A stretch of 64,000 bases of DNA from contig OZ242318.1 of the NCBI GenBank assembly GCA_965208105.1, positions 1,984,001 through 2,048,000 on the forward strand. Reading direction: 5' to 3'. Below the pieces are notes generated by a model. That model was not told the origin of the DNA, ran no database searches, and saw only the letters and a list, made by a program, of their open reading frames with translations. Positions within the stretch are counted from its first letter, which is position 1, and each line of letters begins with the position of its first letter. Positions 9,916-13,103 of the stretch are shown piece after piece. This DNA comes from Candidatus Latescibacterota bacterium. GTDB lineage: Bacteria > Latescibacterota > UBA2968 > UBA8231. Position numbers and translations under genes: made by a program.

Positions 9916-10707
9916 CTAACAGTTTCCCTCCTCCAGATTGGAGAATGGCTGCACTCGATACCAATACCGGTACGTTTCGCTGAAACCATACTTCCGCTGC
10001 AGAGCCAGGGCAGGCTCGTTGTTGGCCATCACCTGCAGGTAAGCAAGGCGCGCCCCCTGTTCAAATCCCCATTTGAGGCGTGCCTCAAGGAGCCCGCTAC
10101 CGAAGCCCCGACCCCGATACTCTGTATCCACCAGCAAATCAAAGAGCCCCATGATCGAGCCCGAAACAACTGCTCGCGCGCAGCCTACAGATCTTCCCTC
10201 AGCCCGTGCGATAACATAGGCCGCAGGAGTGGAGACCGCGTTGAGTAAACTGCGGGCTACCTCCGAGTGCTGACTGCGATCGGACAGACGTCTCCAGGTT
10301 TCGAGCCACTCATCTGTCGCACTTTGGTATAACGATATGGCAGAGGAACAATCGGAACTGGTATCAAGCGGCTTGGTTAGAACCAGTGTATCCGCGTCTC
10401 TGGAGTACTGAAGCATGGCCAATTTCTCCTCCAAATCCACGGGTTGACAAGCAGGAAAAATCTTGAAAAGACAAGGTAGCGACGCCCGCGAGAACGCTGA
10501 TTCACAATGATCCAGCTTCTCCTTGAGCGGGGTTGTGGATCCATAGAGAGGGACTACACAGTTGGCACGGCGACTGTATCCCGCGGACATTCGAACGATC
10601 CAGCCGTCGAAGAACTCTGTTTTCAGCGCGGGCAGCCCGTTCAGCGCCGCCTCTTCCAGAGCTACTACAAGCTCTGGACTTTTCAATGAATCAAGTACTA
10701 TTGCCAT
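9916..10707 (-). CDS. GNAT acetyltransferase
   Basis: GYSRRANCV N-domain; YRGRGFGSGL, AYLQV, NEPALALQRKYGF; start chosen at ATG 10707 just inside an attC-like core. Confidence 0.85.
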   Translation of the reverse strand: MAIVLDSLKSPELVVALEEAALNGLPALKTEFFDGWIVRMSAGYSRRANCVVPLYGSTTPLKEKLDHCESAFSRASLPCLFKIFPACQPVDLEEKLAMLQYSRDADTLVLTKPLDTSSDCSSAISLYQSATDEWLETWRRLSDRSQHSEVARSLLNAVSTPAAYVIARAEGRSVGCARAVVSGSIMGLFDLLVDTEYRGRGFGSGLLEARLKWGFEQGARLAYLQVMANNEPALALQRKYGFSETYRYWYRVQPFSNLEEGNC

Positions 10708-10784
10708 AGGTTTCGATATGCCTATTTGGTGCTTCGGATAACGTTTCGCATTAGCCGAGGCCACATAGCGAGCTGCCGAAGGCC

Positions 10785-10949
10785 TAGTGTCCCGTCGCAG
10801 AGATAGGTTGACGCAATTGGGCCGCCGAGGCGCCAGGCTCACAAGGCGCCTGAGCGAGTCGTACCAGTGGTGTACGGCGAGTGAAGGCAACGCCGTGAGC
10901 CGGGATGGATCGGCGGAATAATGGCGACATATTTCTGCGACGGGACACT
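10785..10949. mobile_element. ~165-bp MITE with ~20-bp terminal inverted repeats, inserted at CTAG
   Basis: TAGTGTCCCGTCGCAGAGATA (10785) vs TATTTCTGCGACGGGACACT (10930-10949), 1 mismatch; terminal AG displaced to 12378-12379 by the IS110. Confidence 0.75.
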
Positions 10950-11021
10950 GATATGTATTGACGGTTGTCAACCCCCTCCGGGGTGGTCATTTCGGATGTT
11001 ATCTTTGCATGAGTTTGTTCG

Positions 11022-11188
11022 GGGACAGAAGGGACGCTGTAGCGACGGTTGATCCGACTGATATTCGCGGGTTGGCTACCGCCTGTCCTGGGTGCGTCGC
11101 GGAGCGGCCTCAATCTAGAGTCGAGGGTCAGCCTGAAAGGCGCCTCATAGTGTCTTCGAGGATTCTCCTGACCGGTCCCTTCTGTCCC
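11022..11188 (-). ncRNA. Putative IS110 bridge/seek RNA
   Basis: 14-bp perfect closing stem GGGACAGAAGGGAC/GTCCCTTCTGTCCC; internal GACACTA and CTAG match the target, ATATCAG matches the donor junction. Confidence 0.7.
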
Positions 11189-11242
11189 GTTTCGATTTAC
11201 ATGAGCAAAGGTCCTATGCCGGCTTCTGAGACGATGAGCTTA

Positions 11243-12262
11243 TCAGGCGGCGATCCGAGGTCTCCTGGCCACGAGGCGGCCGGGGCGTTTCTGCTCCCAG
11301 GCGATGGCCTGTATGGGGGGTGCGGTCTGTTCGGCGCGTCGTTGCAAGGCGGCCGTCTTGCGGGCGGGAAAGCGATAGCACCAGGCCGCTTCCACCAGCA
11401 CACGCCGCACGTGGGCGTTGCCCGCCTTGGTGATCGCCCCTCGCTTTTGCCGGGAGCCGCTGGAATGCTCGCTGGGGACCAGACCGACGAAGGCCATCAG
11501 TTGGCGCGGCGAGTCAAAGCGGGTGAGGTCCCCCAGCTCGGCCAGGGTCGTAACCGCGGTAAGCGTGTCTACCCCGCGCAGCGCCCTCATAGCCCGCGTC
11601 TCCCCTTCCAAAGACCACCCCTCCAAAGTCTGCTGCAGGGCCTGGTCCAACCCCTGGATCCGACCTTGGGCTTCCTGTACCGCGTCCACGTATTCCTGAA
11701 AGACGATCTGCTGGGCCGGATGATCGAAGCGCTGGGTCTCCAGCCAGCGAAAGTGGGCTTGGGTCCAGCGACTGCGCCCGGAGTAGATCCGGCCGTGGCG
11801 CTGCAAGAAGCTGTTCAGCCGCTGGCGCACGCGGCGCTCGGCGTGCTTGAAGTCTTCCCGGCAGCGCTCCAGGTCACGCATCGCCTCCTGCGCTTCGTCG
11901 GGCACCCACACGGGGGTCAACTCGCCGTGTTGGAAAAGCCGCACCAGAGACAGCGCATCGCGCCGGTCGGTCTTGATGCGGTCGCCCGGCCGCCGCGGGA
12001 TCAGCGAGGGCGCCACCACCGTGCAGGCGTGCCCCAGGGCTGTGAGCTGACGGTAGACGCCGTAGCCGCAGGGTCCGGCCTCGTAGCAAAACCGCAACGA
12101 GGTCCCACCACGGGCCAGTTGGCCCGCCAGCTTGGACAACGCGGCGTCCGTAGACGGTATCGTTCCATACAGGGCTGGCCCTTTTCGGCCTTCACCGGCC
12201 AGGGCGACGGTGATCGAATCTTTATGTATGTCCAAGGCGACGAATTTCGTAGATTTACGCAT
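11243..12262 (-). CDS. IS110-family transposase/recombinase; C-terminus looks shortened
   Basis: DEDD residues ALDIHK, CYEAG, KTDRRDA; GLVPSEHSSG catalytic-Ser loop; GNAHVRRVLVEAAW. Confidence 0.92.
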   Translation of the reverse strand: MRKSTKFVALDIHKDSITVALAGEGRKGPALYGTIPSTDAALSKLAGQLARGGTSLRFCYEAGPCGYGVYRQLTALGHACTVVAPSLIPRRPGDRIKTDRRDALSLVRLFQHGELTPVWVPDEAQEAMRDLERCREDFKHAERRVRQRLNSFLQRHGRIYSGRSRWTQAHFRWLETQRFDHPAQQIVFQEYVDAVQEAQGRIQGLDQALQQTLEGWSLEGETRAMRALRGVDTLTAVTTLAELGDLTRFDSPRQLMAFVGLVPSEHSSGSRQKRGAITKAGNAHVRRVLVEAAWCYRFPARKTAALQRRAEQTAPPIQAIAWEQKRPGRLVARRPRIAA

Positions 12263-12431
12263 GGCCTCCTCCTTCTCGCTGGGGATAGGTCTTTGGGTGA
12301 ACTCCGTTTTCCCAAAGATAACCCCCGACAACCGAGTCGGAGGAGGTCTTTCATATCTCCGTCAATACATAAGGTCTAGGCGGCGCAGAATTAGCCCGAT
12401 ATTATCGCTTCGAAGCTTCGTGGCTGCTCGA

Positions 12432-12701
12432 CTACAGCCGGGAAACAAGCTGCTCGTAACCAGCATGAGAGCCGATCCAGAACCAGACTATGAGACCTTC
12501 TGTTTGCACGCCCAAGGCACGGTAATCTCGTGTGACCCTGACAGCGTAGATCGGTTTGGTAGGATGAATCTTCTTGAATCGCAGACTCGGATGGTTTGGA
12601 TTATCCCGAAAACGGGCGTACGCTGCGGCCGCCTGAACCTGGACGTGCTGAGGAAGTTCGCGTAACGCTTTCCGAAAACGATCGGTTGTCCGGGATATCA
12701 T
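12432..12701 (-). CDS. RelE/ParE-like type II toxin
   Basis: 89 aa, HPSLRFKKI...VRVTRDYRALG...WFWIGSHAGY; 4-bp overlap with the upstream acidic ORF. Confidence 0.8.
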   Translation of the reverse strand: MISRTTDRFRKALRELPQHVQVQAAAAYARFRDNPNHPSLRFKKIHPTKPIYAVRVTRDYRALGVQTEGLIVWFWIGSHAGYEQLVSRL

Positions 12702-12916
12702 GAATCACGAGATTCGAAGGGCTCGGTCTTTCCTGATTGGTATTCAGCTACAGCCTCATCCGCCAGGGCAGTCAACTGCTCCGCTGTCGAGTCAAATGCG
12801 CGCTCCCACCGGCGCTCTGACTCCAGCTCCGAAATCAAAACAGCCGCAATCGCATCCTGCTCATCATTCGAGAGCTTCTTGATTTCCAAGATCGCCTTTT
12901 CCAGAAGTTGAGTCAT
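12698..12916 (-). CDS. Putative antitoxin
   Basis: Small acidic protein MTQLLEKAI...EQDAIAAVLISELE...LADEAVAEY coupled to the toxin. Confidence 0.75.
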   Translation of the reverse strand: MTQLLEKAILEIKKLSNDEQDAIAAVLISELESERRWERAFDSTAEQLTALADEAVAEYQSGKTEPFESRDS

Positions 12917-13103
12917 CGGAGTCCTCCTAATCAGGTGTTCGGCAAACTGTCGGGTTAAAGTAAATATAAGGAAGTCGCTCATGGAAGGTCTTGGTGAAAT
13001 TCCATACAGATGACGTTTTCCGAACCAGATTCGGAGGCGCTGAAGGACAGCCCGCTCTCAGGAGGCCTCTCCGATATCCACTCCAACTTCTACAGCCGCT
13101 TCC

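Follow-up and report, generated by a model that had tools for sequence, protein, structure and literature searches.

RNA guides have been described for insertion sequences (ISs) of the IS110 family, in both its IS110 and its IS1111 group. For ISEc11, ISKpn4, ISPa11 and ISPst6, members of the IS1111 group, a seekRNA has been reported (Siddiquee et al. 2024, PMC11187229), and for IS621, of the IS110 group, a bridge RNA with two internal loops, in each of which two guide segments overlap at the core dinucleotide (Durrant et al. 2024, PMC11208160); throughout, we draw on parts of these two papers. The layout of the IS1111 group, with subterminal repeats and a long 3' non-coding region, is described in both, the motif GL-P----S(T)G in the C-terminal domain is named as conserved in this group (PMC11187229), and the predicted bridge RNAs of IS1111 elements are placed in the right end (PMC11208160). 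Here, we analyzed a stretch of 64,000 nucleotides (nt) from the genome of a Candidatus Latescibacterota bacterium (contig OZ242318.1 of assembly GCA_965208105.1), referred to as the window, whose coordinates are used below. The 167-nt stretch from 11022 to 11188 is very probably the guide-RNA gene of an IS1111-group IS110-family IS, with a target loop written for the tip of a miniature inverted-repeat transposable element (MITE). The element is an ordinary IS110/IS1111 member of an already known type, with the bridge/seekRNA in the right end and an IS630-type MITE tip as target, and the current picture of the family is left unchanged by our findings.

The IS extends from 10950 to 12375 of the window on the minus strand and measures 1,426 base pairs (bp), versus 1,546 to 1,548 bp in the sister copies; its ends are common to 12 copies in the own genome, and its junctions read CTAG/ACCTT...ATATC-AG/TGTCCC, where a slash marks the junction. 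The transposase gene (11243 to 12262, minus strand) encodes, from its ATG, 339 amino acids (aa), in which Pfam recognizes the RuvC-like DEDD N-terminal domain (DEDD_Tnp_IS110, PF01548, E 1.6e-13) and the C-terminal transposase domain (Transposase_20, PF02371, E 1.8e-22), and the NCBIfam model NF033542, "IS110 family RNA-guided transposase" (cut-off 140), gives 263.6 bits for a full-length sister protein. The motif GLVPSEHSSG, at residues 260 to 269 of the full-length protein, is kept in the window copy. Furthermore, both ends carry subterminal inverted repeats of 12 bp, a length within the 7 to 17 bp of the IS1111 group: the left one (ATGTATTGACGG, 12359 to 12370, minus strand) lies 5 nt inside the left end, and the right one (CCGTCAATACAT, 10953 to 10964, minus strand), followed by ATC and the core AG, lies 3 nt (plus the core) from the right end. 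The non-coding stretches measure 295 nt 3' of the stop codon versus 113 nt 5' of the ATG. In the DEDD transposase, the subterminal repeats and the long 3' non-coding region, the element resembles the four IS1111-group elements named above (PMC11187229), from which it differs in the length of its protein (379 aa in full-length copies, versus the quoted 330 to 350 aa) and in having a MITE tip as its target. In the plasmid collection, the best matches reach about 60% protein identity.

The original prediction, made from the letters of the window, had read this region as a bridge/seekRNA closed by a perfect 14-bp stem, with GACACTA and CTAG in a loop bounded by CCTC..GAGG and ATATCAG in a second region, and all the strings that it named are present where it placed them, namely, in transcript sense, GACACTA at 11154-11148, CTAG at 11118-11115 and ATATCAG at 11064-11058. 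The predicted long bridge/seekRNA (11022 to 11188, minus strand) is closed by arms at 11175-11188 and 11022-11035, whose perfect 14-nt complementarity does not extend further. Inverted repeats of at least 14 nt within 200 nt occur five times in the window, one of them being this stem and another the MITE terminal repeat, and a 181-nt region folds at -67.3 kcal/mol (z = -3.04; 1 of 200 shuffles as good); the stem is therefore unlikely to have arisen by chance. In the minimum-energy fold, AGACACUA and ACUCUAGA face each other in one internal loop closed by CCUCGA and UUGAGG, so that the two strings of the proposed loop stand on opposite sides of it, and AUAUCAG falls in a second stem-bounded region. 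The target-binding loop module (11108 to 11161, minus strand) is delimited by the outer stem CCUCGA (11161-11156) with UUGAGG (11113-11108) and contains an inner hairpin at 11147-11122, and the donor-binding loop module (11042 to 11100, minus strand) has the outer stem GCGACG (11100-11095) with CGUCGC (11047-11042) and an inner stem of G-CGG with CCGC. The closing stem is perfect in the window copy alone, the sister copies having one G-U pair (seven copies), a G-U pair and a mismatch (three) or an internal mismatch (one).

The same architecture was recovered in relatives of the element, here denoted by L numbers, which were collected by a scan of one genome per species. We kept the best 80 of 233 (57 to 85% transposase identity); a recognizable right end was present at 64 loci, 49 distinct non-coding regions (250 to 350 nt) were aligned, and the RNA region was represented by 45 distinct sequences in an alignment designated A1. 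In addition to the RNA region, the relatives keep the end motifs, with xTAG in the left flank, AC(A/C)T(C/T) and ATGKATTGACC at the left end and ...ATACAT-ATC-AG at the right end. On A1, RNAalifold returned 36 consensus pairs in seven helices, that is, the outer stem, GGAG with CUCC, the outer and inner stems of the first loop with its hairpin, the outer and inner stems of the second loop and a two-pair contact inside the latter. The consensus positions are paired in 94.4% of the cells, versus 37 to 47% when partners are slid by one to three columns, and compensatory change affects 21 of the 36 pairs, versus 8 to 11 after sliding (185 such cells versus 17 to 42); none of 500 shuffles reached any of five structure measures. 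The scaffold is nearly invariant, and the variable columns are those of both sides of the first loop, the hairpin and the outer stem. It could be argued that the region is just structured 3' untranslated sequence, a terminator or a DNA end to which a protein binds, and that its matches to the flanks arose by chance, since the matches in the window are of 4 to 7 nt and CTAG is palindromic, and since a scan of 10500 to 12800 against Rfam, at E up to 1, gave no family for the RNA region; no T run follows the stem. The covariation of the structure speaks against this explanation, and so do the flanks, to which we now turn.

The 5' side of the target loop (AAGACACUA, 11148 to 11156, minus strand) is invariant in all 12 copies of the own genome and would act as the right-target guide, its GACACUA being the complement of top-strand TAG/TGTC. 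The 3' side (ACUCUAGA, 11114 to 11121, minus strand) would be the left-target guide, its (U)CUAG repeating the left flank, which is CTAG in 12/12 copies. In the transcript, the top-strand complement thus stands 5' of the bottom-strand complement, the same order that is reported for IS1111 members (PMC11187229). Matches of 4 to 7 nt are weak by themselves, and their reality rests on comparative tests of the homologous non-coding regions, which the original prediction had proposed as a check. The right guide was taken as the nine bases that separate CCUCG from the inner stem, and its reverse complement was compared with the last three left-flank and the first six right-flank bases. In 34 distinct guide/target pairs, the mean was 4.47 of 6 right-flank matches (2, 3, 4, 5 and 6 matches in 2, 5, 9, 11 and 7 pairs, respectively), versus 1.73 of 6 in 1,110 cross pairs; when each of the 31 distinct guides was taken once, the sum was 139/186, which none of 20,000 permutations reached (mean, 56.5; standard deviation, 6.8; maximum, 90). 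The left guide, taken as the four bases preceding the core, agreed with its own left flank at positions -3, -4, -5 and -6 in 38, 32, 21 and 9 of 38 pairs, versus 84%, 32%, 27% and 21% of the cross pairs, and over 22 distinct guides it gave 63/88, versus a permutation mean of 34.7 (standard deviation, 3.9), with 0/20,000 permutations reaching 63. From these positional counts, the left guide reads approximately five bases (the core among them), versus approximately six to nine for the right guide.

The changes of the guide are numerous and scattered across the family of relatives. In particular, the window copy, with guide GACACUA, faces TAG/TGTC, and L043, with UACACUA, faces TAG/TGTA; likewise, L058 (AGGCUCCUA) faces TAG/GAGCCT and L060 (AGACUCCUA) faces TAG/GAGTCT, each of these two couples representing a single-base change of guide and target together. 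Further targets are AAG/GGCAAAC in L094 (guide GUUUGCCCUU) and TAG/CTTCAT in L118 (guide AUGAAGCUA). It had been anticipated that a GACACUA guide kept by homologous elements at unrelated targets would speak against the target-loop reading, and no such case was seen among the relatives: the two that keep GACACUA, L061 and L079 (62% and 59% protein identity), are sited in TAG/TGTCCGG and TAG/TGTC. L046, a 5'-truncated element and the only relative whose guide is identical to that of the window, has the right flank GTGTTCC, which fits TGTCCC after a one-base shift, and was counted neither way. With the right guide covarying over 31 distinct guides (0/20,000 permutations), the left guide covarying as well, and 12/12 junctions in agreement with the guide, a structured region with chance matches to its flanks is hardly credible.

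The own genome, a single contig of 4.85 Mb, carries 12 copies of the IS. In all of them, the left flank ends with CTAG, the left end opens with ACCTT, the right end closes with ATATC-AG and the right flank starts with TG, that is, insertion is specific for both sequence and orientation, and no target duplication beyond the shared core is found (12/12 junctions CTAG/IS/(AG)TG). In 10 of the 12 copies, the right flank is the terminal repeat of a MITE, and in these insertions it is always the right, RNA-bearing end of the IS that abuts the MITE. The remaining two copies are found in unrelated DNA, at CCTAG/TGTTGTG and GCTAG/TGGTCGC. Sharing of the same right flank by 10 copies could also be explained by co-mobilization or segmental duplication of one IS-plus-MITE unit. 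This origin is very improbable, given that the 12 left flanks are alike in CTAG alone and all differ beyond it, which indicates separate insertions rather than copies of one segment, that both MITE ends are used (seven insertions at one and three at the other), that the sequences beyond the MITE differ and that the two copies in non-MITE sites still show CTAG/TG; moreover, with 85 full-length MITEs in the genome, free copies far outnumber occupied ones. Selection of MITE tips by the target loop, as had been read from the window, is supported by the own-genome junctions together with the guide/flank covariation.

The MITE next to the IS in the window is approximately 166 bp long (10784 to 10949, no strand assigned), with terminal repeats CTAGTGTCCCGTCGCAGA, and its right tip is the IS target. 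On the other side, the left flank CTAG (12376 to 12379, no strand assigned) holds, as plus-strand CT, the second copy of the core, and its remainder belongs to the split target GGGACA-CT-AG. The own genome contains 85 full-length MITE copies (at least 85% identity) and 38 partial matches. Where a MITE end is uninterrupted, the sequence is GGGACACTAG, and AG occurs once within CTAGTGTC; the reconstructed target is therefore correct, and the core AG (plus-strand CT) is present once in the target and at both IS junctions. Free CTAGTGTC sites number 87, 74 of which are MITE tips and 13 are elsewhere. The MITE copies mostly have CTAG at both ends, and in the rarer CCAG...CCAG and CTGG...CTGG variants the two ends agree, as expected for TA duplication inside a CTAG site. 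Duplication of TA with a preference for CTAG is a habit of IS630-family elements (PMC2170065, in part, and the title of Tenzen and Ohtsubo 1991). The suggestion of an IS630-like terminus gained support from the relative L043 (77% protein identity), whose right flank is the end of a 1,176-bp element (L043:2924-4099) with the same kind of repeat, bounded by CTAG and encoding HTH domains and DDE_3. In the own genome, pairs of terminal repeats 400 to 4,000 bp apart, as expected of an autonomous parent of the MITE, were not found, save one pair of 2,837 bp, the ends of which belong to two separate MITE copies.

Some further observations concern the MITE and the remnants of the IS in the own genome. 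Approximately 17 of the partial MITE matches (about 86% identity) span the internal part only (query positions of about 36 to 133), which points to a second MITE subfamily with other ends. An Rfam match of the MITE to MIR918 (23.4 bits versus a gathering score of 268) was taken as chance. A solitary 160-bp fragment at C1:3931346-3931506, with no transposase gene nearby, corresponds at 91% identity to the right end of the IS (repeat and distal non-coding region). An older remnant of a non-coding region, which shows about 85% identity to that of the window and a differing right-target guide (ACTGCACTA), is split into two halves at C1:3999575-3999611 and C1:4001325-4001432 (L006 and L019). The break falls at the TCTAG encoding the remnant's left-target guide and is filled by a composite of an IS copy (3999611-4001156) and a MITE (4001155-4001321). 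The relation between the two kinds of element may be reciprocal, the likely order of events being the insertion of the MITE into the CTAG of the IS remnant, followed by that of a new IS onto the MITE.

The second internal loop presents, on its 3' side (11058 to 11064, minus strand), the motif AUAUCAG, which is identical to the right IS end plus core; indeed, ATATCAG is present in reverse complement, as CTGATAT, at 10948-10954 of the plus strand. The match continues into the left end, as AUAUCAGA(C), in most relatives. Moreover, variants of the right end are mirrored in the RNA in two lineages, with ATAACAG in L052 and ATACCAG in L064, L074 and L117, so that the proposed assignment of ATATCAG as donor guide gains support, with the exceptions reported below. 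The 5' side of the same loop (CACCCAGGACAG, 11083 to 11094, minus strand) shows, by aligned comparison, a partial complementarity (5/8) to the core and left end, and reads CAGGACAG in the window and GAAGUCAG in most relatives.

Two observations on this loop are reported in their own right. Columns 120 and 150 of A1 (window positions 11086 and 11057) change together, with U-A in 32 sequences and A-U in five (the window and L043 to L046); the former lies in the 5' side of the donor loop and the latter is the base after AUAUCAG, and the left end starts with A in both groups. A possible regulatory pairing of CGYGGGTT in the 5' leader (12322-12343, minus strand, about 27 to 46 nt inside the left repeat) with AACCCRCG of the inner stem of the donor loop was considered, 14 of 40 elements showing matches of 8 to 9 nt; it was dropped, since the scores are alike for own and for cross pairs (5.6 versus 5.4).

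Several observations weigh against the interpretation of the stretch as a guide RNA, and they involve the target loop, the donor loop and expression. With regard to the target loop, specificity is loose, in that the 2 of 12 copies in non-MITE sites share with the MITE target just CTAG/TGT or CTAG/TG, mismatches from the third or fourth right-flank base on being tolerated. The right guide of the window pairs with the MITE over 7 nt only, leaving two 5' loop bases unpaired. Some of the right-flank pairs in relatives are weak (2/6 in L071 and L100; 3/6 in L045, L053 and L063), one of which, L053, is a second copy of an element whose other copy, L056, matches at 5/6; L089 and L094 are at 3/6 only through a one-column register shift of the alignment. 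The left guide of the own-genome copies is UCUAG in nine, CCUAG in one and CAUAG in two, and both CAUAG copies (2/12) are flanked by CCTAG, in disagreement with their guide. Guide and flank need not agree in cis, and these copies either changed after insertion or moved with the RNA of another copy. Finally, the permutation tests of both guides ignore the relatedness of the elements.

In the donor loop, AUAUCAG is one base off the own right end in L080, L098 and L100, and in L067 and L081 AA replaces the AG core at the right junction. The 5' side, compared with the last right-end base, the core and five left-end bases, matches at a mean of 5.0/8; complementarity is found at 0/20 for the first core position and at 17/20 and 20/20 for left-end bases 1 and 2, and left-end bases 3 to 5 covary weakly (1.5 versus 1.04 of 3). 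A reading of this side as a clean complement of the left end was rejected, exact complements of at least 6 nt being rare and not at a homologous place. It is possible to hypothesize, on these grounds, that the RNA guides the choice of target only and that the ends are recognized by the protein through the subterminal repeats, with AUAUCAG kept for scaffolding or processing. According to the parts of PMC11187229 used here, an 82-nt short seekRNA of ISEc11 with the target matches suffices for transposition, and end recognition may differ in IS1111 elements; the modest score of the 5' side, which lacks clear covariation, and the three relatives with a broken AUAUCAG identity go in the same direction. 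However, AUAUCAG changes with the right end in two separate lineages, it stands in an internal loop of the same architecture as the target loop, and donor loops across the family, together with a discontiguous right-donor pairing in IS621, have been reported (PMC11208160), the latter implying that imperfect donor pairing is not foreign to the family. We therefore regard a role in target choice alone as unlikely, the function of the 5' side of the donor loop being the main point that separates it from the explanation that we prefer, a guide RNA reading both target and donor.

As for expression, contigs of four metatranscriptome runs from four studies are 90 to 99% alike over the non-coding region and the gene, but they have neither strand nor ends, and DNA may have been present in the libraries, so that they are no proof of an RNA. 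Guide positions 11119, 11120 and 11153 are among those at which these contigs differ from the window, which fits with variable guides in close relatives. A promoter scan of the linear element gave 0 sites; terminator-like sites turned up in the same scan. When right and left ends are joined, as in a circle, a sigma-70-like promoter (TTGACA-N17/18-CATNAT) is formed at the junction in 40 of 45 distinct elements, but in neither the window copy nor L043 to L045, its closest relatives with a mapped left end, all four of which have ACCTT as the left end and a right end with two extra bases. Such a junction promoter is common in the family and not defining for membership. Among the metatranscriptome contigs examined, none contains the joint of right end to left end; a single contig (X1) joins 11538 to 12196.

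Taking the points above together with the covariation of structure and guides, we propose a mechanism for the predicted guide RNA that reads target and donor. By analogy with ISEc11 and IS621, the RNA would be transcribed either together with the transposase message or downstream of it, and the DEDD transposase would bind it and carry out the recombination. On the right of the AG core (TAG/TGTC), the top strand would pair with the 5' side of the target loop (AAGACACUA), and on the left of it, the bottom strand would pair with (U)CUAG of the 3' side. A site of the type (T)CTAG/TGTC occurs mainly where a TA-flanked MITE of IS630 type meets its CTAG insertion site, and the element would for this reason land on MITE tips, with its RNA end against the MITE. 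In the second loop, AUAUCAG, corresponding to the own right end and core, and the stretch partly complementary to the left end may jointly hold the donor junction.

Since the target of the window copy is the tip of another mobile element, we considered whether the same holds for the wider clade. In 57 relatives with at least 1,000 nt downstream, we searched for an inverted copy of the first 14 right-flank bases, with at most two mismatches. Such a copy was found further on in 11 of the 57, at 126 to 161 bp in nine, at 442 bp in one and at 1,176 bp in one, and in all 11 it is followed by CTAG or TTAG (for example, L049:2935-3091, L070, L083 and L043). As controls, the mirrored left flank gave 4/50, and random 14-mers in the same flanks gave 17/1,140. 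At least a fifth of the sampled relatives thus also sit on the tips of TA-flanked repeat elements. The flank of the remaining relatives is too short or represents another target; for example, four of the five Longimicrobiales copies L094 to L099 (not L096) share both flanks. When the IS630 proteins of L043 were compared by tblastn with the 57 right flanks, the only matches were to L043 itself, to a DDE_3-like stretch that L066 carries beyond its MITE and, weakly, to an HTH in L086. It may be, although we would sooner doubt it than assert it, that the whole IS1111-group clade (57 to 85% transposase identity, in metagenome-assembled genomes labelled as several phyla) is built to land on the tips of TA-duplicating, CTAG-seeking IS630-type elements and their MITEs. 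If so, the near-invariant xTAG of the left junction and CUA/UAG of the guide would correspond to the C-TA-G junction made by IS630-type elements, and the right-target guide alone would be rewritten to follow the terminal repeat of each host. At title/abstract level, which does not exclude a publication, we found no literature on IS110/IS1111 elements aimed at IS630 or MITE ends.

The transposase of the window copy is damaged, as its shortened C terminus had suggested. Unlike in the other 11 copies, the gene is missing the 120 bp (40 codons) that lie between two copies of GGCCATCGCCTGG, and alignment of the 12 copies places this in-frame deletion at 11297 to 11309 (minus strand), where one copy of the direct repeat is left. 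The missing residues, 323 to 362 of the 379-aa protein, fall inside the stretch aligned by NCBIfam (residues 7 to 361). The transposase measures 379 aa in ten copies, 254 aa in one other and 339 aa in the window copy, and the 120-bp segment is present in contigs of RNA libraries (loose ends at 11297 and 11309; X6 record 19). The window copy retains intact ends and an intact RNA region; where it differs from the sister copies, the changes are confined to hairpin loops or yield the perfect stem. With 40 transposase residues deleted, the window copy probably depends on its sisters; judging from the sequence, it is probably non-autonomous and could be moved only by the ten copies with a 379-aa protein. 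It would represent a non-autonomous derivative in which the transposase is damaged and the RNA and ends are not.

The IS1111-family elements IS4321/IS5075 reportedly insert into the 38-bp terminal inverted repeat of Tn21-family transposons, as Partridge and Hall are said to have described in 2003. They are like the element of the window in targeting the terminal repeat of another transposon; here, the target is the tip of a TA-flanked IS630-type MITE. ISEc21, an IS110-family element, is similarly RNA guided and has its natural target inside another mobile element (PMC11187229), but it targets a conserved stretch of IS3-family transposase genes, and its RNA is upstream. The IS1111 elements treated in the same source share with the window copy the position of the top-strand match 5' of the bottom-strand match and natural retargeting among relatives (PMC11187229). 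With respect to IS621 (PMC11208160), the likeness extends to the two internal loops, to the two guide segments that overlap at the core dinucleotide in each of them, to a core read as CT on one strand and, in transposase sense, as AG here, and to an imperfect right-donor pairing; on the other hand, the RNA gene described here is in the right end and not in the left, the order of the guides within the loops is reversed, the subterminal repeats are long, and no Rfam model is matched. ISPpu9, ISPpu10 and IS621, which are reported to target repetitive extragenic palindromic (REP) sequences, also use an abundant harmless repeat as a landing site, but REPs are not transposon ends, whereas the site considered here is created by the insertion of the MITE itself.

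The locus offers a well-documented natural example of a bridge/seekRNA: a single genome contains 12 insertions next to 74 MITE tips and 13 other occurrences of the same 8-mer that are free, and a mobile element uses the junction made by another one as a safe landing site. The alignment of the family, where both guide segments change with their targets, shows how many guide bases act in nature, namely approximately five on the left and four to seven on the right in this case, off-target insertions occurring at CTAG/TG. In the window, the two mobile elements are located side by side between a GNAT acetyltransferase gene (9916-10710, minus strand) and a pair of open reading frames (12432-12982, minus strand), probably a toxin-antitoxin pair, which adjoins the left flank of the IS and consists of a ParE-like toxin frame (PF24732, 89 aa) and a preceding frame of 94 aa with no Pfam match.

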